A stretch of 64,000 nucleotides of DNA from Sphingomicrobium sp. (lineage in GTDB: Bacteria; Pseudomonadota; Alphaproteobacteria; Sphingomonadales; Sphingomonadaceae), in NCBI GenBank assembly GCA_035711585.1, contig DASTCB010000164.1, forward strand, positions 10,783 to 74,782. The letters are read 5' to 3'. Of this stretch, positions 25,402 to 31,099 are shown in pieces. The translations under genes were made by a program, and so were the position numbers. Position 1 is the stretch's first letter, and each line of letters starts with the position of its first letter. The notes beneath the pieces are model-generated. The model saw nothing but the letters and a program-made list of their open reading frames with translations, did not search any database and was not told the DNA's origin.

Positions 25402-26298
25402 CTAGCCTCGGCGCCCGCCCGCGGCCCGCTTGGGAGCAGCCTTCTTGGTCGTACGCCGGGCGGCGGGTTTTGCGGTCCCCTTCTTCACCCCCGGCTGGGC
25501 CCTGGGCTTTTCGTCACCGAGGCTCTTCTTGAGGGCAGCCATCAGGTCGATGACGTTGGAACCCTTGAGCGGTCGCTCGGCCTCGTCGTCCTGGATAATG
25601 CGCTTGCCCTTTTTCTTCTGCTTCTCGGCAATCAGCTTCGTCAGCGCGTCGATATAGCGGTTCTCGAACTCTCCAGCGTCGAAGTCGCGGGTCTTTTTCT
25701 CGATGAGCGTCTCGGCCATTTCGAGCAGGTCGGGGTCGGGCTTGGCATCGCCGATGTCCCGGAAATAGCTGGAAGACTTGTTGACTTCATCGGCGTAGCG
25801 AAGCGTCTCCAGCACCATGCCGCGGCCGCAGGGCTTGAGGCTCACCACATATTCCTGGCCGCGCATGGCGAGCTGCCCGATGCCGACCTTGCCGGTCTTC
25901 TTGAGCGCGTCGCGCACCACGACAAAGGCTTCCTCGGCAAGGTCGTCGGCGGGAGTCACATAATAGGGCTTGTCGTAATAGATGGGGTCGATGTCAGCCA
26001 GCTTGACGAACTGGGTCAGCTCCAGCGTCTTGCGGCTCTCCAGCTTGACCTTCTCGATCTCCTCGGGGTCCAGCAGCACATATTCGCCCTTCGAAACCTC
26101 ATAGCCCTTCATGATCTCGTCCTTGTCGACGGGACCGATGCCGGGAACGACCTTTTCGTAGCGGACGCGCTGGCCGGAAGGTTCATGGACCTGATGGAAA
26201 GCGATCGACTTGCCGGTCTTGGTCGCCGGATAGATTTCTACCGGGATCGATACCAGTGCCAGCCGGATCTGACCGCGCCAGGAAGGACGGGCAGCCAT
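25402..26298 (-). CDS. ku: NHEJ protein Ku
   Basis: WRGQIRLALVSIPV, YYDKPYY, NVIDLMAALKKSL, basic tail. Confidence 0.97.
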   Translation of the reverse strand: MAARPSWRGQIRLALVSIPVEIYPATKTGKSIAFHQVHEPSGQRVRYEKVVPGIGPVDKDEIMKGYEVSKGEYVLLDPEEIEKVKLESRKTLELTQFVKLADIDPIYYDKPYYVTPADDLAEEAFVVVRDALKKTGKVGIGQLAMRGQEYVVSLKPCGRGMVLETLRYADEVNKSSSYFRDIGDAKPDPDLLEMAETLIEKKTRDFDAGEFENRYIDALTKLIAEKQKKKGKRIIQDDEAERPLKGSNVIDLMAALKKSLGDEKPRAQPGVKKGTAKPAARRTTKKAAPKRAAGGRRG

Positions 26299-26357: not shown

Positions 26358-26409
26358 TTGGCGCTGCCCGATAGCGCCACTACATTGGCCGGTGAGGGAG
26401 GCTCCGCCG

Positions 26410-26736
26410 ATGAATCCAGCGATCCACGCCGCGATTATCGCCGCGACACATCAGGAAGGAATCGAGAAGAAGATCGAGGGCCGGCTCAAGAAGGCTCGGG
26501 CGCTGGGACCGGCGAGCGCGATCGCCCTGGATCTCGAAGGCAAGGACCGGGATCTGATCGACCATGCCATCGTGGCGGGCACCGTCAAACGGACGTCCGA
26601 CGGTCGGCTCTACCTCCATGAGCAGGCGGTTGCCGACCGCAAGGAAGGCCAGGGCTTCATGGTGGTCTTGATCGTGCTGGTGATGGGATCGCTTATCGCC
26701 TCGGCCGCAGTTCTGGCTACATCGGCCGGCGGCTAG
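26410..26736 (+). CDS. Hypothetical protein with C-terminal TM helix
   Basis: GAGGGAGG RBS region; hydrophobic FMVVLIVLVMGSLIASAAVLA tail. Confidence 0.7.
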   Translation: MNPAIHAAIIAATHQEGIEKKIEGRLKKARALGPASAIALDLEGKDRDLIDHAIVAGTVKRTSDGRLYLHEQAVADRKEGQGFMVVLIVLVMGSLIASAAVLATSAGG

Positions 26737-26790
26737 GCATTGACGCGGCGCGCTTGCCGATGGCAAAGGCCGCGGGCTCAGGCGCCAAGG

Positions 26791-26864
26791 GCGGGTGTAG
26801 CTCAATGGTAGAGCAGCAGCCTTCCAAGCTGAATACGGGGGTTCGATTCCCCTCACCCGCTCCA
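26791..26864 (+). tRNA. tRNA-Gly(TCC)
   Basis: GCGGGTG/CACCCGC acceptor stem, CTTCCAA anticodon loop, GTTCGATTC T-loop, encoded CCA. Confidence 0.97.
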
Positions 26865-26902
26865 TATCCGAACCGTGCGGGGCACGGTTCGGATATGGAG
26901 CG
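26858..26902. repeat. Perfect 21-bp inverted repeat overlapping the tRNA-Gly 3' end
   Basis: CGCTCCATATCCGAACCGTGC-GGG-GCACGGTTCGGATATGGAGCG. Confidence 0.85.
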
Positions 26903-26971
26903 CCCGAGGCTTTAGCCGAGGGGCGACTTTGGCTCCCGGTCACCACGCCGCCGCTCTAACAGCGACGCCGG

Positions 26972-26999
26972 TTGACAGCGCTCTATAGGGCCGCCACAT
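26972..26999 (+). promoter_or_regulatory. Putative sigma70 promoter of tRNA-Tyr
   Basis: TTGACA at 26972 and GCCACAT at 26993, about 20 nt before the tRNA. Confidence 0.5.
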
Positions 27000-27018
27000 G
27001 GCGCGCCTGCCCACACCT

Positions 27019-27104
27019 GGAGAGGTGGCCGAGTGGTTAAAGGCAGCAGACTGTAAATCTGCCCGCGCAAGCGTACGCTGGTTCGAATCCAGCCCTCTCC
27101 ACCA
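27019..27104 (+). tRNA. tRNA-Tyr(GTA)
   Basis: GGAGAGG/CCTCTCC acceptor stem, CTGTAAA loop, long variable arm, GTTCGAATC, CCA. Confidence 0.97.
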
Positions 27105-27415
27105 TTGCCGCGCGCACGCCTGTCCCCCAGACAGGCGAGCACGGCAATTCCGCTGAAGCTACGGCTGGCAAGCCAGCGCCGCGATCCTGCGGAGGCTGTG
27201 CGACGAAACATTTAGATCACATTCGGAATAGGCAAAAAAAGCCAGCGCGCCGGCCCGCCTCGTGATGGCCCTATCAAACACTTCATCCATTTCGGACCAA
27301 CCGCCTTCTCGCGTGAATGGCCCAATTCTCATAAAAATTTGAGCATTTCCGCGGTTTCGACTATGAGAATCGAGGGGGTGAAAGCGTTGTTGCACATATT
27401 CCATGCTCGGAAGGA

Positions 27416-28006
27416 ATGATGGTGCGCGTCATGGCTGCCGATCGCGTCGAGGAAGTCGCCATCACGATAGACCCGGATTCTCCGGTCGCCCGACTCAGCC
27501 CCGGGCAGATCGAGTGCCTGCTGCTGGTCGACAGGCACCACAGCAGCAAGGAGATCGCCGCCCGGCTTGGGATTTCTCCGCACACGGTCGACCAGCGGAT
27601 CCGAGGCGCTCTCGACAAGCTGGAAGTGGAACGCCGGGGCGAGGCGGCCCGGTTGGTCGCGGCCGCTCTGTCGCCCGACGATCCGACATATCAGCGGTTG
27701 ATACATCAATCGCCGCACATCGACCCCACTGCTCTGTTTGGACACCAAGAAGGCACGGTCCGCACTCAGATTCGGCACGCAGACCGCGCAGGGGAGGCCA
27801 GTCCTCCCGGTGTCAAAACCGAGCAGAGACCGGTTGGGCTTGGCTCTCCCCTGCAACTGCCGTTCGCAACGAGGAGCCACCCCAGCAATGAGATGAGCGT
27901 CGGCCTCCGGCTGGTCTGGATCATCCTGATCGCAATGGGGGCAACCTTTTCGGCGGGCATGTACCTGGCCGGACTGGAAAGCCTCTCCAGGATGATCAGC
28001 GGCTAA
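27416..28006 (+). CDS. LuxR-type HTH regulator with C-terminal TM helix
   Basis: LSPGQIECLLLV..HSSKEIAARLGISPHTVDQRIRGALDKL HTH; LRLVWIILIAMGATFSAGMYLAGL TM. Start could be 27419 or 27431. Confidence 0.85.
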   Translation: MMVRVMAADRVEEVAITIDPDSPVARLSPGQIECLLLVDRHHSSKEIAARLGISPHTVDQRIRGALDKLEVERRGEAARLVAAALSPDDPTYQRLIHQSPHIDPTALFGHQEGTVRTQIRHADRAGEASPPGVKTEQRPVGLGSPLQLPFATRSHPSNEMSVGLRLVWIILIAMGATFSAGMYLAGLESLSRMISG

Positions 28007-28076
28007 GCCGCTCTCTCTCTCTTTCATTGCTGACCACGGCCCGGCGCGGGATGCCCGCGTCCAGGGGAGAAGAGTC

Positions 28077-28427
28077 ATGCGCAAACAGATAATCGAATCC
28101 GCCGCTTTCGAAGTCGCCACCCAGACCCGCGCCGTCGAGGACGCCATTGAGAGCGCCCTCGCCGAAATCGCCGAGCTGCAAAGCCGGATGATCCGCGCCC
28201 GCGCCGTCTTCGGCATCGCCACCGCCACGGGACATGAGGCCTTCGAGCAGTTGGCGGTCGCCACCCAGAGCCTGGTCAAGGCGCGCGGCGGAATGGCGAA
28301 TTGCCACCTTACGATGAAGGAAACGGCTCAGTTCGTTCCCGGTCTCCGCACCGTCGGCTTCGGCGATGCCCAGGAATGCCCGCCTCAGCAGGGCGCGGCC
28401 CGGCCCGACCTTCGCGTCGTCGGCTGA
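28077..28427 (+). CDS. Hypothetical helical protein (116 aa) with GFGDAQECPP tail
   Basis: GGGGAAGAG RBS; Ala/Glu-rich helical body; clean high-GC codon usage. Confidence 0.8.
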   Translation: MRKQIIESAAFEVATQTRAVEDAIESALAEIAELQSRMIRARAVFGIATATGHEAFEQLAVATQSLVKARGGMANCHLTMKETAQFVPGLRTVGFGDAQECPPQQGAARPDLRVVG

Positions 28428-28438
28428 ACCGGAAGGGT

Positions 28439-28469
28439 TGACCGGACCGCGCATCGCGTGGTCCGGTCA
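28439..28469 (+). other. Intergenic stem-loop without U-tract
   Basis: TGACCGGACC/GGTCCGGTCA arms with additional inner pairs. Confidence 0.65.
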
Positions 28470-28477
28470 TCTGCACC

Positions 28478-28909
28478 ATGCTTGGCGCAACAATTTTCAT
28501 TCCGCTGCTGATTGCCGTCTGCCTCTACGCCGTCTGGCGCGGGGGTGCGGACGAGCGGATCGTGGCGATCACCTGCCTGGCGGGCACGGCGGCGACATTG
28601 CTCGCGGTGTCGCCGTTGCATCAACGCTATTCCAGCATCGAGGGAGGGCTGATGCTGGTCGACCTTGCGGTCCTGGCCGGATTCATCACGGTTGCCCTTC
28701 GCTCGAAGCGCTTCTGGCCGCTGTGGGTCGCCGGGCTGCAGCTGACCACCTCCATTGGTCATATACTAAAGGGCGTCGACCAGGACCTGCTGCCGAGGGC
28801 TTATGGCGCGGCGCTCCAATTCTGGAGCTATCCGATCCTGATCATCCTCGCCGTCGGCACCTATCGCCGCCACCAGCGCCTGCGCCGATCGGAGGCGATG
28901 GCTCCCTAG
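28478..28909 (+). CDS. Small multi-pass membrane protein
   Basis: About 5 hydrophobic segments; RGGADER, DLAVLAGF, ALRSKRFWPLWVAGLQL motifs. Confidence 0.8.
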   Translation: MLGATIFIPLLIAVCLYAVWRGGADERIVAITCLAGTAATLLAVSPLHQRYSSIEGGLMLVDLAVLAGFITVALRSKRFWPLWVAGLQLTTSIGHILKGVDQDLLPRAYGAALQFWSYPILIILAVGTYRRHQRLRRSEAMAP

Positions 28910-28942
28910 CGCGGCTGTCGCGGCGCGACTATTCATCGGCCC

Positions 28943-29944
28943 ATGGCCGATCCCCACGCCATTGCCAGCGCAATCCTGGATGCGATCGACGAACCGGCGC
29001 TGATCGTTCGCGACGGCATCGTCGCGTCGGCGAACAAGGACGCAATATCCCTGCTTGGCGCCCGCATTGTCGGTCGCGATTTGCGCTTCGCCATCCGTCA
29101 CCCGCTGGCGCTCGACACGATCCAGTCCGGCCCGGCCGCCGATATTGAGCTGATCGGCATCGGGTCTGCAGAGCGACCTTGGCAATTGAGCGTCCGTCCC
29201 GTGCCGGACGGCACGCTGATCCGCCTATCCGACCGATCCGCAACCAGAGCCGCCGAGCGGATGCGCACCGATTTCGTGGCCAATGCGAGCCATGAGCTTC
29301 GAACGCCATTGGCGACGATCATCGGCTATGCAGAGACCCTGGCGGACGAGGGCGCCGTTGACGAACAAATGCGAAGCAAGTTCGGCGGGACCATCCAGTC
29401 GGAAGCCAAGCGCATGCTGCGCATCGTCGAGGACCTGATGAGCCTGTCGCGGATCGAGGCCGACCGTTACCGCGCGCCGGAAGACAAGGTCGATATGGCC
29501 GAGGTGGTGCGTATCGCGCTCGAACACGCAGTTTCGCTAGCGGAGGGGCGCGGATGCCAATTGGAGGCTTCAATCGAACCCGATGCCCCACCGGTCCTGG
29601 GTGATTTCGGGCAGCTGCTCCAACTGACCGACAATCTGATTGCCAATGCGATCCGCTACGGCTGCAGCGACAAGTCGTGCATCGCCCGGATTTCGCTTCA
29701 TGCCAGGGATCGACAAGTGATCCTGAAGGTCAGCGACGAGGGTGAAGGCATCGCGTCGGAACATCTGCCCCGCCTCACCGAGCGCTTCTATAGAGTAGAT
29801 TCCGCGCGAAGCCGCGAATCAGGCGGCACCGGCCTCGGCCTCGCCATCGTCAAGCATATTGTCGAGCGCCACCGCGGAACCCTGGACATCCAGTCGGAGC
29901 CCGGCCGAGGCACGGAAATCAAGGTATCCTTGCCCGCATCCTGA
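28943..29944 (+). CDS. phoR: PhoR-type sensor histidine kinase (PAS-HisKA-HATPase, no TM)
   Basis: DFVANASHELRTPL, NLIANAIRY, DEGEGI, ERFYRVDSARSRESGGTGLGL; upstream of pst operon. Confidence 0.9.
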   Translation: MADPHAIASAILDAIDEPALIVRDGIVASANKDAISLLGARIVGRDLRFAIRHPLALDTIQSGPAADIELIGIGSAERPWQLSVRPVPDGTLIRLSDRSATRAAERMRTDFVANASHELRTPLATIIGYAETLADEGAVDEQMRSKFGGTIQSEAKRMLRIVEDLMSLSRIEADRYRAPEDKVDMAEVVRIALEHAVSLAEGRGCQLEASIEPDAPPVLGDFGQLLQLTDNLIANAIRYGCSDKSCIARISLHARDRQVILKVSDEGEGIASEHLPRLTERFYRVDSARSRESGGTGLGLAIVKHIVERHRGTLDIQSEPGRGTEIKVSLPAS

Positions 29945-30052: not shown

Positions 30053-31099
30053 TTGATGATGAAAAAGATGCTCGTTGCGCTGCCGCTGGTGGCGCTGGTC
30101 GCGGCTTGCGGCGGAAGCGGTTCGGGCAGCGGCGGTGCCGCCGCGCAGCTCAAGGTCGTCGGTTCCTCGACCGTCTATCCATTCACCACAGCGGTGGCCG
30201 AAGAATTCCAGCGGGCGAACCCGGGCATCAGCGTCATCGTCGAATCGACCGGCACCGGCGCCGGCATCAAGCTGTTCTGCAGCGGCATCGGCGGGCAATC
30301 GCCCGACATGGTCAACGCTTCGCGGCCGATGAAGAAGAGCGAGTATGACAGCTGTGCCGTGGCCGGCGTGAAGGATGTCATCGAGGTTCCGGTCGGGATC
30401 GACGGGCTCACCCTGATCCAGGCCAAGGACCAGCCGCCGCTCAACCTGACGGTCGAGCAGATCTACGCGGCGCTGGCCGCCACCCCGTTCAACAAGGGCC
30501 CGAACCAGGCGCAGACCTGGCAGGACGTCGATCCTTCGCTTCCGGCCATCAAGATCCGTGTGCTTGGCCCGCCGCCGACCTCGGGCACCCGCGACAGCCT
30601 GGCCGAGCTCATCCTCGACAAGGGCTGCAACACCGATCCGGCGATGAAGGCTCTCAAGGAAAGCGACGAGAGCAAGCACAAGGAGGTTTGCACCAAGATC
30701 CGCGAGGACGGCGCCTACGTCGAGGCGGGCGAGAATGACAATCTGCTGGTGCAGAAGGTTTCAGCCGACCCCGGCTCGCTCGGCGTGCTTGGCTACAGCT
30801 TCCTCGAGGAGAATGCCGACCGCGTGTCGCCGGTATCGATCGCCGGCGTGGCCCCGACCGAAGCGACCATCAGCGACTTGAGCTACCCCGGCAGCCGCCG
30901 GCTATACCTCTATGTGAAGGGCGAGCATGTCGCGGCCAAGCCGGCGATCAAGCAGTTCCTCGAGGCCTATTCGAAGAGCTGGGGCGCTGGCGGCTCGCTC
31001 GCCAAGCGCGGGCTGGTTCCGCTCGCTCCCGCAGAAGGCGAGGCCGCAACCGCCCAGGCGACCGCGCTCACGCCGCTCGACCCGGCCGCGCTCAAGTAG
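30053..31099 (+). CDS. pstS: Phosphate ABC transporter substrate-binding lipoprotein
   Basis: LVAAC lipobox, VGSSTVYPF, ESTGTGAG, PPPTSGTRD. Confidence 0.95.
   Translation: MMMKKMLVALPLVALVAACGGSGSGSGGAAAQLKVVGSSTVYPFTTAVAEEFQRANPGISVIVESTGTGAGIKLFCSGIGGQSPDMVNASRPMKKSEYDSCAVAGVKDVIEVPVGIDGLTLIQAKDQPPLNLTVEQIYAALAATPFNKGPNQAQTWQDVDPSLPAIKIRVLGPPPTSGTRDSLAELILDKGCNTDPAMKALKESDESKHKEVCTKIREDGAYVEAGENDNLLVQKVSADPGSLGVLGYSFLEENADRVSPVSIAGVAPTEATISDLSYPGSRRLYLYVKGEHVAAKPAIKQFLEAYSKSWGAGGSLAKRGLVPLAPAEGEAATAQATALTPLDPAALK

Follow-up and report, generated by a model that had tools for sequence, protein, structure and literature searches.

What does a run of three short genes, lying directly after a tRNA-Tyr gene in Sphingomicrobium, encode, and do its products act together? 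We studied this question in a window of 64,000 nucleotides, the whole stretch of DNA that was analysed. An earlier model annotation made from the letters alone (the sequence-only reading) had described three co-directional genes at this site and proposed a self-contained module of regulator, ligand and membrane partner. All three genes are open reading frames on the + strand, and the features of the locus are as follows.

26791-26864, tRNA-Gly, upstream of gene i
27019-27104, tRNA-Tyr, directly before the three-gene cassette
27416..28006, + strand, gene i: 196-aa tail-anchored LuxR/GerE-type transcription regulator (ORF, Pfam and PDB profile matches)
27488..27655, + strand, helix-turn-helix (HTH) DNA-binding domain of gene i, aa 25-80 (Pfam and PDB matches)
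27851..27973, + strand, gene i juxtamembrane motif LPFATRSxPxNEMSVG and single transmembrane (TM) helix, aa ~163-186 (hydropathy, conservation)
28077..28427, + strand, gene ii: 116-aa soluble helical-hairpin protein with a conserved disordered tail (ORF, AlphaFold2)
28335..28424, + strand, gene ii tail: G-L-R-x-x-x-[FW]-G-[GD], then [DE]-K-P (E-C-P here), then the C-terminus ..LRVV[AG] (alignments)
28439..28469, + strand, RNA hairpin at the ii/iii junction: 14 bp, loop AUC, without a U tract (covariation)
28478..28909, + strand, gene iii: 143-aa five-helix inner-membrane protein (ORF, AlphaFold2)

Gene i encodes a tail-anchored LuxR-type regulator

Residues 27-80 of gene i matched the Pfam family PF00196 (GerE) at 30.7 bits, above the Pfam gathering cut-off of 23.5, which places the protein in the LuxR/GerE HTH superfamily. 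The best Pfam score was that of Sigma70_r4_2 (32.3 bits). Against the PDB, the gene i profile matched GerE (1fse) and the C-terminal domain of NarL (1je8) at E about 3e-7, in both cases over residues 13-82 only. The genus alignment shows an invariant block, SKEIA..L.IS.HTVDQR.R, in the HTH. Neither Pfam nor NCBIfam found an autoinducer-binding domain, as LuxR/TraR receptors have, or the Response_reg domain that marks NarL/FixJ-type receivers; the NarL-type matches cover the HTH only.

The N-terminal HTH is followed by a linker and TM helix alone. Hydropathy analysis gave a single hydrophobic segment (residues 159-187), and after the TM helix only ~10 residues remain (LESLSRMISG). Pfam, the PDB profile and hydropathy thus agree with the architecture first read from the sequence, a LuxR HTH with no receiver or autoinducer domain and one C-terminal TM helix. 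Demey et al. 2023 (PMC10269533) define transmembrane transcription regulators (TTRs) as combining DNA binding with one or more TM regions in a single polypeptide, and this arrangement is kept in all gene i orthologs. The extracytoplasmic receiving part of that class is lacking. With only ~10 residues beyond the TM helix, sensing by gene i must run via a partner or the bilayer.

Conservation of gene i is not confined to the HTH. The linker motifs YQRLIHQ (within the YQRLIHQSP singled out by the sequence-only reading), QIRHADRAG and LPFATRS.P.NEM are strongly conserved, and within the genus the juxtamembrane motif and TM helix are the most conserved part of the protein, above the HTH. Across genera the pattern LP.P....N[DE][LM]..RL.WI..IA is kept. 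Such conservation of the TM and juxtamembrane region over the HTH is what a specific contact within the membrane would predict.

Gene i orthologs were found in 18 of 24 Sphingomicrobium genomes. The gene i profile also detects the gene in 19 of 20 loci from other Sphingomonadaceae, and in the remaining one (L149) that place is taken by a 208-aa gene. K-mer enrichment in the regions upstream of gene i recovered the 3' end of tRNA-Tyr and no other common motif, and no DNA target of gene i was found. A literature search for tail-anchored or membrane-anchored LuxR proteins in sphingomonads gave nothing relevant.

Gene ii encodes a soluble helical hairpin with a conserved tail

Gene ii is preceded by a GGAGA Shine-Dalgarno sequence. 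AlphaFold2 modelled its product as two helices (H2-45 and H53-86) that form a hairpin and are followed by a disordered tail, at a pLDDT of 80.7 overall and below 50 for residues 99-109. This two-helix model matches the 116-aa helical protein that had been described, and the tail quoted for it, GLRTVGFGDAQECPP...LRVVG, was correct. Neither a TM segment nor a signal peptide was found. The C-terminus is VA in 76 of 77 genus sequences, and AA or VA in 25 of 41 others. Cys101 is conserved in Sphingomicrobium only; Lys occupies that site in other genera, as part of the [DE]-K-P motif, and many tails there lack Cys altogether.

Gene ii matched no solved structure and no family in Pfam, NCBIfam or PADLOC. 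A fold search of its model against the PDB gave no match with E < 0.6, and its profile returned only chance coiled-coil matches from the PDB. TraM did not appear in any of these searches: Pfam gave no match for gene ii, and TraM was absent from the PDB profile matches (E <= 10) and from the top 50 Foldseek matches listed. The predicted fold is that of a generic helical hairpin.

Gene iii encodes a five-helix membrane protein with no family match

The AlphaFold2 model of gene iii consists of five helices (pLDDT 84.8), in line with the roughly five TM segments and 143 residues originally reported. The predicted topology is N-out/C-in by the positive-inside rule, with extracytoplasmic loops of 10-15 residues. 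Conservation lies mainly in the cytoplasmic loops and inside the bilayer. G22, E26, R27, D62, R78 and W80 are invariant or near-invariant across the family, D62 being predicted to be membrane-embedded, and the motifs RGGADER and ALRSKRFWPLW are both present and conserved. The conserved surfaces of all three proteins face the cytoplasm or lie within the membrane.

The sequence-only reading had also picked out a Cys and a His in gene iii, and these fared differently. Cys33 (ITCLAG) varies even within the genus. His95 (SIGHIL) is invariant in Sphingomonadaceae and is replaced by Tyr in two Brevundimonas paralogs.

Gene iii matched nothing in Pfam, NCBIfam, PADLOC or the PDB. A PDB fold search with the model gave no match with E < 0.6, a PDB profile search returned nothing, and no AgrB, other peptidase or DUF1109/NrsF signature was found. 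In the searches with proteins of the module, weak single-sequence matches to DUF5337, midcut-by-XrtH and PhaE were not reproduced across family members and were discarded. The family comprises 2,057 clusters among 1.84 billion representatives.

A conserved RNA hairpin separates genes ii and iii

The strong U-less hairpin noted between genes ii and iii is borne out: its 14-bp stem folds at -33.9 kcal/mol (z = -3.9). Here we find that the stem covaries. In the alignment 84% of cells are paired, against 25-44% in slid controls, and double-sided changes number 82 against 24 +/- 4 in shuffles. We also find G·U pairs at two positions in the + (sense) orientation. Hairpins of the form CTTGACC...GGTCAAG occur in other genera.

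A stem with no T run after it in the window is not an intrinsic (Rho-independent) terminator. At the same junction of at least one Caulobacteraceae locus (L165) a T run does follow the hairpin. Rfam gave no match for the hairpin, returning two tRNAs only for 26700-29300. A genome-wide REP-type repeat was rejected because the hairpin is present as one copy in the genome. The hairpin half-site was also considered as an operator for gene i, and it was not found upstream of that gene. Gene iii lacks a preceding Shine-Dalgarno sequence.

The three genes are linked across genomes but also occur as variants

We checked whether the three families might prove unlinked across genomes, and found strong linkage. 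Gene i is present, in the order i-ii-iii, in 72 of 80 Sphingomicrobium loci, and the same order holds in all 20 loci from other Sphingomonadaceae genomes. A further count of loci from other Sphingomonadaceae genomes gave linkage in 7/7. Gene ii always lies upstream of gene iii: 80 of 102 gene ii matches had a gene iii match directly downstream among the matches listed, and the remainder were in genomes with gene iii matches outside those listed. The three genes are real and make up a conserved, self-contained module that has never been characterised.

The occurrence of such trios in sphingomonad and caulobacter genomes, as stated in the sequence-only reading, also held. The gene iii family is present in 167 of 299 Sphingomonadaceae and 88 of 118 Caulobacteraceae genomes, and in no other family among the ~400 alphaproteobacterial genomes sampled. 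Genomes carry up to 8 copies. Twenty sphingomonad plasmids, six of them conjugative, carry the family.

Two kinds of variant locus, new here, depart from the trio. Some loci have gene i followed by 5-7 tandem gene iii copies without gene ii; gene iii arrays overall hold 4-7 diverged copies. Others read ii-ii-iii-iii and have no gene i within ~2.4 kb, indicating that genes ii and iii can function without the tethered regulator in cis. Thus the module is not strictly a trio of regulator, ligand and partner. The original proposal is partly supported, as to the linked module. As gene iii is found with gene i alone and with gene ii alone, it is the common partner, and the variant loci mark it as the apparent hub of the module.

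A second new observation concerns RadC. In 14 of 20 other Sphingomonadaceae loci a RadC gene lies directly after gene iii, and the adjoining RadC keeps an intact HNHPSGD JAMM motif. No RadC adjoins the locus studied here, none lies beside the Brevundimonas trio, and in Sphingomicrobium RadC is unlinked. An obligatory role as a fourth gene was therefore rejected for this genus, where RadC lies on different contigs, away from any trio. A literature search on RadC function gave nothing relevant. XRE-type HTH genes are also among the frequent neighbours of the module.

In nearly all Sphingomicrobium genomes the module is single-copy and occupies a largely syntenic chromosomal site. The three annotated neighbourhoods contain no integrase, transposase or other mobile-element genes, and their contexts are chromosomal and housekeeping-like. 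Recent horizontal acquisition was considered and gave no compositional signal, the GC content matching the surroundings. The kinase gene downstream is PhoR-like and lies beside pstS; it is adjacent to gene iii in no more than about half of the Sphingomicrobium loci.

A membrane transcription switch is the best reading

Our leading interpretation, to which we give an even chance of being right, is that the cassette is a TTR-type membrane transcription switch made from three separate proteins. It retains the earlier idea that a one-component regulator is tethered to the membrane and has a partner there. The analysis shows the gene structures, domain content, predicted topology, linkage, distribution, variant loci and covariation of the hairpin; which proteins touch, which way control runs, what the signal is and which genes are targeted are all inferred. 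Gene i would be held at the inner face of the cytoplasmic membrane by its single C-terminal helix and, having essentially no extracytoplasmic part, would be unable to sense the outside alone. Gene iii would act as the sensing and organising hub, most likely packing on the juxtamembrane motif of gene i and on its conserved TM helix, which is rich in small residues, and would present the conserved cytoplasmic loops (RG..DER and R..RFWP) and the polar intramembrane residues D62, Q88 and H95. Gene ii is most likely a cytoplasmic modulator, an anti-activator or adaptor, docking on gene iii and/or the HTH; its small-hydrophobic/Ala C-terminus, which is nearly universal, may give it a short half-life. 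What is sensed is probably a state of the membrane, the envelope or the cytoplasm rather than a diffusible peptide. The hairpin and the absent Shine-Dalgarno sequence probably set gene iii output below that of genes i and ii, either because transcription partly terminates there or because the upstream transcript is processed and stabilised. Against the switch stand the regions upstream of gene i, which yielded no DNA target, the ii-iii loci lacking gene i in cis, and the generic hairpin fold of gene ii, which matches neither TraM nor any other anti-activator.

The TTR concept is established, including the co-transcribed partners ToxS, TcpH and LysP (PMC10269533). Like ToxR/ToxS, TcpP/TcpH and CadC/LysP, the module joins a DNA-binding domain and TM helix in one membrane-acting polypeptide and encodes next to it a small membrane partner, presumably needed for control. 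Unlike these, gene i has a LuxR/GerE-type domain and not an OmpR-type winged helix (Trans_reg_C), is tail-anchored and lacks a periplasmic sensor domain. Its partner has five helices and comes from a family that Pfam does not list, the module adds a third protein, a soluble helical hairpin, and there are variants with the partner only and variants lacking the regulator. Neither the winged helix nor the periplasmic contact of ToxR/ToxS is found, and the operating principle alone is common to both.

Two further systems resemble parts of the module. TraR-TraM of Agrobacterium Ti plasmids pairs a LuxR-type activator with a helical-hairpin anti-activator of ~100 residues, and here too a LuxR-family HTH gene lies beside one for a ~110-aa protein predicted as two long antiparallel helices. 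However, gene ii has no sequence or fold match to TraM, gene i is membrane-anchored without an autoinducer domain, and the constant partner is a membrane protein. SigF-NrsF of Caulobacter is a sigma factor/multi-pass anti-sigma pair. It shares with the module a sigma-region-4-like HTH, a small multi-pass membrane protein, the same bacterial families and control of a transcription protein by a membrane protein without a large periplasmic domain. By contrast, gene i carries only the region-4-like HTH, lacks sigma region 2 and is anchored in the membrane itself, and gene iii has no DUF1109/NrsF signature.

Alternative explanations

Foremost among the alternatives, though unlikely, is a regulated-proteolysis switch, the form of control known for ToxR and TcpP. 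Inactive, membrane-held gene i would be freed by cleavage in its linker or TM helix, with gene iii acting either as the protease inside the membrane or, like ToxS/TcpH, as a protector, and gene ii as an adaptor or decoy. The conserved linker motifs of gene i exceed what mere tethering needs, and gene iii offers the membrane-embedded D62 together with the conserved E26 and H95. Gene iii nevertheless matches no protease family or fold, and H95 is Tyr in some paralogs. RadC is JAB metalloprotease-like and, with its intact JAMM motif beside gene iii in most of the other Sphingomonadaceae loci (14/20), might be the cytoplasmic protease in other genera. It is, however, unlinked in Sphingomicrobium and missing beside the Brevundimonas trio, and we know of no demonstrated protease activity of RadC.

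Next, and also rather improbable, comes a conflict or immunity system for phage defence, bacteriocin immunity or addiction, in which gene iii would serve as an effector or immunity protein in the membrane, with gene ii as a labile antidote or partner to it and gene i as no more than the local transcription regulator. Further evidence against the switch belongs here: gene iii arrays of up to seven copies, multicopy genomes, plasmid carriage and RadC and XRE-type HTH neighbours are more typical of such systems. The diverged tandem copies, the regulator-less ii-ii-iii-iii loci and the Ala-rich C-terminus of gene ii, which would suit a protease-labile antidote, point the same way. PADLOC, however, gave one weak chance match for the HTH (E 0.005) and none for genes ii and iii. 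The single, largely syntenic copy in nearly all Sphingomicrobium genomes, the lack of mobile-element genes in the three annotated contexts and the host-like GC content argue against it. Nor does a simple repressor easily account for a tail-anchored HTH protein whose TM helix is highly conserved.

A more specific proposal for gene iii, which we regard as quite unlikely, makes it a new family of stand-alone intramembrane sensor hubs that read the state of the bilayer, confined to Sphingomonadaceae and Caulobacteraceae. These hubs would signal directly to a tail-anchored transcription factor and/or a helical adaptor, in a three-part path running wholly through membrane and cytoplasm, with no kinase, periplasmic domain or proteolysis. 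The two families are the alphaproteobacterial ones known for their membrane sphingolipids. If this were true, the tandem gene iii arrays would be a panel of lipid or envelope inputs to one regulator.

Peptide signalling of the agr type, raised by the sequence-only reading, is highly improbable. Its appeal lies in the gene order it shares with agr, a small protein gene (here with a Cys-Pro-Pro tail) followed by that for a small multi-pass membrane protein, so that gene iii would process and export a Cys-containing gene ii precursor sensed via gene i. We rejected it on the conservation pattern and the absent homology. The gene ii Cys is limited to Sphingomicrobium, with Lys or Cys-free tails elsewhere, and AgrB, AgrD and peptidase signatures are absent (no AgrB/AgrD match at E <= 1), as is any fold match. 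Gene ii is a confidently modelled 85-residue helical hairpin with no export signal, and at most ~10 residues of gene i lie outside. The module has no AgrC/AgrA pair of its own, the downstream PhoR-like kinase by pstS being next to gene iii in only half or so of the genus loci.

Equally slight is the prospect of a dedicated biogenesis machinery (gene ii as cytosolic chaperone and gene iii as insertase for gene i, a true tail-anchored protein for which co-translational insertion is impossible), since gene iii resembles none of YidC, Get1 and EMC3 in structure, and ii-iii loci without gene i and gene iii arrays misfit a one-client insertase. In its favour, Oxa1/Get1-type insertases pair a few TM helices with a coiled-coil hairpin in the cytosol.

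Significance of the module

Membrane-bound transcription regulators are common, but the sensing and action of only a handful, of the ToxR-like kind, are understood. As a membrane transcription switch, the module would be a compact, clearly bounded TTR variant: a regulator without an outside domain and two dedicated partners, both from families that Pfam, NCBIfam and the PDB lack. In two large, environmentally important bacterial families, over half of the genomes sampled have the module. The carriers include cultured, genetically tractable Sphingomonas, Novosphingobium and Brevundimonas, so the proposed contacts and regulon are directly testable. Some 2,000 clusters of membrane proteins now labelled hypothetical would gain a role from the switch, as would the conserved hairpin of the mRNA, whose stem sequence is fixed.

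Linkage and distribution of the trio

The LuxR-type regulator (gene i), the small helical protein (gene ii) and the multi-pass membrane protein (gene iii) form a module that is real, strongly linked, widely distributed and previously undescribed. All three genes run in the same direction, 3' of a tRNA pair, and the GC content of the cassette is that of its surroundings. The motifs quoted in the sequence-only reading were all found within it.

Features of the cassette and its surroundings (window coordinates)
25402-26298, - strand: Ku-family protein gene (PF02735, E 6e-51), its C-terminal tail rich in lysine
26392-26736, + strand: ORF of 114 aa, flanked by the Ku gene and tRNA-Gly
26791-26864: tRNA-Gly, upstream of the cassette
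27019-27104: tRNA-Tyr, upstream of the cassette
27326-27333 and 27362-27369: 8-bp inverted repeat TTCTCATA-N28-TATGAGAA, in an AT-richer region
27416-28006, + strand: gene i, ORF of 196 aa
28077-28427, + strand: gene ii, ORF of 116 aa
28439-28469, + strand: hairpin at the ii|iii junction
28478-28909, + strand: gene iii, ORF of 143 aa
28943-29944: PhoR-like histidine kinase (HisKA and HATPase_c, weak PAS match)
30053-31099: PstS-like phosphate-binding protein, next after the kinase

Linkage across genomes had been set beforehand as a point on which the proposal would stand or fall, and the families proved to be linked. Single-sequence searches found the trio adjacent in about 20 of 24 same-genus genomes, those without it all being incomplete (60-78% completeness). 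Genes i-ii-iii stood in constant order in 72 of 80 named loci fetched by the gene iii profile, all 72 from Sphingomicrobium sensu GTDB, including cultured 'Sphingomonas' caseinilyticus, cremea, alba, edaphi and agri. Of the eight loci left, all but L066 run into a contig end. In other Sphingomonadaceae genomes the trio was present in 7/7 and subsequently 20/20 loci. Of the 102 gene ii matches in 300 family genomes, 80 are followed immediately by a co-oriented gene iii match among those listed; the remaining 22 come from genomes for which the gene iii matches fall outside that list.

The conserved unit is the trio, as opposed to its neighbourhood: tRNA-Tyr lies upstream in 31/54 genus loci and a PhoR-like kinase downstream in at least 37/76. 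This kinase starts 34 nt past gene iii in the window but, since only about half of the genus loci have it beside the trio, is probably outside the module. The inverted repeat sits about 50-90 nt 5' of gene i and is a possible operator; k-mer analysis found no motif common to orthologous gene i upstream regions. The Ku-family gene, a bacterial NHEJ component, lies just 5' of the tRNA pair.

With broad profile A8, the gene iii family was found in 167/299 good Sphingomonadaceae genomes (70/105 genera) and 88/118 good genomes of a second family (21/25 genera), identified as Caulobacteraceae because the named matches are Brevundimonas and Caulobacteraceae. An evenly drawn set of about 400 alphaproteobacterial genomes (about 180 families) gave matches in these two families alone, a restriction that holds within that sample. 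Gene iii copies are also present in 20 plasmid or megaplasmid records from sphingomonads, six of them typed conjugative. An exhaustive HMM search of 1.84 billion representatives recovered 2,057 gene iii clusters at 50% identity. The proteins are almost all stand-alone and 140-165 aa long, with source names that, save a few evident mis-annotations, all read 'hypothetical protein'. No account of the module turned up in literature searches.

Properties of the three proteins

GerE/LuxR (30.7 bits) and Sigma70_r4_2 (32.3 bits) both exceeded their Pfam cut-offs over residues 25-80 of gene i, and the rest of the protein gave no Pfam match above cut-off. Against PDB, its ortholog profile matched GerE, NarL, DesR and VraR, restricted to aa 13-82. 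Because its single hydrophobic segment (aa 159-187) lies near the C-terminus with about 10 residues beyond, gene i is a tail-anchored protein with a cytoplasmic HTH. Within the genus, conservation of the linker and TM equals or exceeds that of the HTH, with blocks YQRLIHQ, QIRHADRAG, TEQ, LPFATRS.P.NEMSVG and FSAGMYLAGLESL; across genera the pattern LP.P....N[DE][LM]..RL.WI..IA is kept, together with a TM rich in small residues. In the 114-aa ORF upstream, a charged helical region makes up the N-terminal three quarters and one hydrophobic helix (FMVVLIVLVMGSLIASAAVLA) closes the protein, which, if real, would also be tail-anchored.

Hydropathy revealed no hydrophobic segment in gene ii. Its confident AlphaFold2 model (pLDDT 80.7) sets two long helices, residues 2-45 and 53-86, antiparallel to each other and leaves the tail disordered. 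E21, L34, R70 and H77 are constant in the helices; the tail carries a constant G-L-R-x-x-x-[FW]-G-[GD] motif followed by [DE]-K-P. The C-terminus is VA in 76/77 genus sequences, and AA or VA in 25/41 sequences from outside the genus. The tail Cys (ECPP) stands in for the Lys of the K-P motif, in Sphingomicrobium only.

Gene iii was modelled with five helices (pLDDT 84.8). As the positive-inside rule assigns loop 3 (RSKRFWP, +3) to the cytoplasm together with the C-terminus (+5), its predicted topology is N-out/C-in. Invariant or near-invariant in both families are G22, E26 and R27 in cytoplasmic loop 1, D62 within TM3, and R78 and W80 in cytoplasmic loop 2. The Cys singled out earlier is variable among homologs. 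The His (H95) is kept, save for Tyr in two Brevundimonas paralogs. Searches of Pfam, NCBIfam and PADLOC assigned neither gene ii nor gene iii to a family, whether run with the single sequences or with other members of each family, and no PDB structural neighbour of either model had E below 0.6. PDB sequence profiles gave nothing for gene iii and chance coiled-coil matches alone for gene ii, with TraM, the anti-activator of TraR, not among them.

Architectural variants and the RadC neighbour

Rearranged modules were seen in Caulobacteraceae and some sphingomonads.

Variant loci
L158 (G738:C339) and L159 (G763:C11): gene i, then five to seven tandem gene iii, without gene ii
L160 and L161 (Brevundimonas-type): ii-ii-iii-iii; no tethered regulator, the only upstream ORFs being thioesterase-like
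L155 (G257:C1:2911000-2926000): i-ii-iii-iii-iii-iii, the trio plus three further gene iii copies
L151: two trios, 3 kb between

Since variants exist with i + iii and with ii + iii, gene iii is the partner common to both. Its tandem copies (L155, L158, L159; four to seven per array) have diverged from one another, and up to eight copies occur in one Caulobacteraceae genome. At the ii-ii-iii(-iii) loci without a tethered regulator (L160, L161, L125, L126), the first gene ii paralog always has a C-terminal Cys (..PEAC, ..TGVC, ..AEPC, ..AALC) and the second terminates ..LRAV or ..LRLA.

In 14 of 20 other-Sphingomonadaceae loci (within L136-L154), a RadC gene adjoins the stop codon of gene iii or overlaps it. 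It encodes a PF04002 protein with an intact HNHPSGD JAMM motif in the JAB domain and the usual HhH-like N-terminal region. RadC lies likewise at the gene iii stop in loci L134, L135 and L170. In six of the 14 loci a small winged-helix gene follows 3' of RadC; it bears a conserved 'F..PAWD.LLDL' motif. Trio, RadC and winged-helix gene may represent an ancestral five-gene operon lost by Sphingomicrobium. The genome that contains the window has RadC on two other contigs, neither with a trio close by, and next downstream of a Brevundimonas trio are an 88-aa gene and an XRE-type HTH gene. RadC is thus a frequent but non-obligatory neighbour. No integrase or transposase genes were present in three annotated module contexts.

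An RNA hairpin between genes ii and iii

Folding confirmed the proposed U-less hairpin between genes ii and iii, a perfect 14-bp stem (-33.9 kcal/mol, z = -3.9) with no U tract after it in the window. In an alignment of 76 ii|iii junctions, 84% of cells in the 14 proposed pairs were paired, compared with 25-44% when the partner column was slid. Double-sided changes occupied 82 cells, against 24 +/- 4 in shuffles, and compensatory change was seen at 10/14 pairs. At two positions (24 and 34 cells) A-U alternates with G·U, alternations that on the opposite strand would give A·C mismatches; the structure is therefore under selection in sense RNA.

The outer stem (TTGACCGGRCC...GGTCCGGTC) is almost fixed and reappears as CTTGACC...GGTCAAG in other Sphingomonadaceae genera; this fixed sequence hints at recognition by a protein. 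The stem occurs once in the genome, was not found 5' of gene i, and the hairpin matched no Rfam family. No Shine-Dalgarno sequence is recognisable for gene iii, which starts 9 nt past the stem. Read most economically, the hairpin is a putative element uncoupling gene iii expression from that of genes i and ii, which might act through partial termination or through processing and 3'-end protection. Caulobacteraceae junctions carry different GC-rich hairpins, one with a T run after it. In that locus (L165, G828:C1) the hairpin (GGGTCCCGTTCGCACGGGACCC) is followed by TTTTTT and resembles an intrinsic terminator, which supports transcriptional uncoupling of gene iii.

Possible function of the module

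The chances seem to us evenly balanced that the cassette is a transmembrane transcription regulator (TTR) in the sense of Demey et al. 2023 (PMC10269533), who defined the class, with sensing delegated wholly to partners; its contacts, signal and targets we infer. Gene iii would be an intramembrane hub and gene ii a cytoplasmic helical modulator, possibly short-lived to judge by its C-terminus. The cassette would then be a variant of membrane-bound one-component regulators with partner proteins, analogous to ToxR/ToxS-type pairs.

We think it unlikely that such a switch works by regulated proteolysis. A conflict or immunity system with gene iii as effector or immunity protein would accord with the gene iii arrays, multiple copies, plasmid copies and loci without the regulator, and is likewise rather improbable. 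Agr-like signalling, which the sequence-only reading had suggested as one possibility, fails every defining feature tested and is very improbable, as is machinery dedicated to tail-anchor insertion. The TTR reading would concern a module in which two components are new protein families and which also carries a conserved RNA element.
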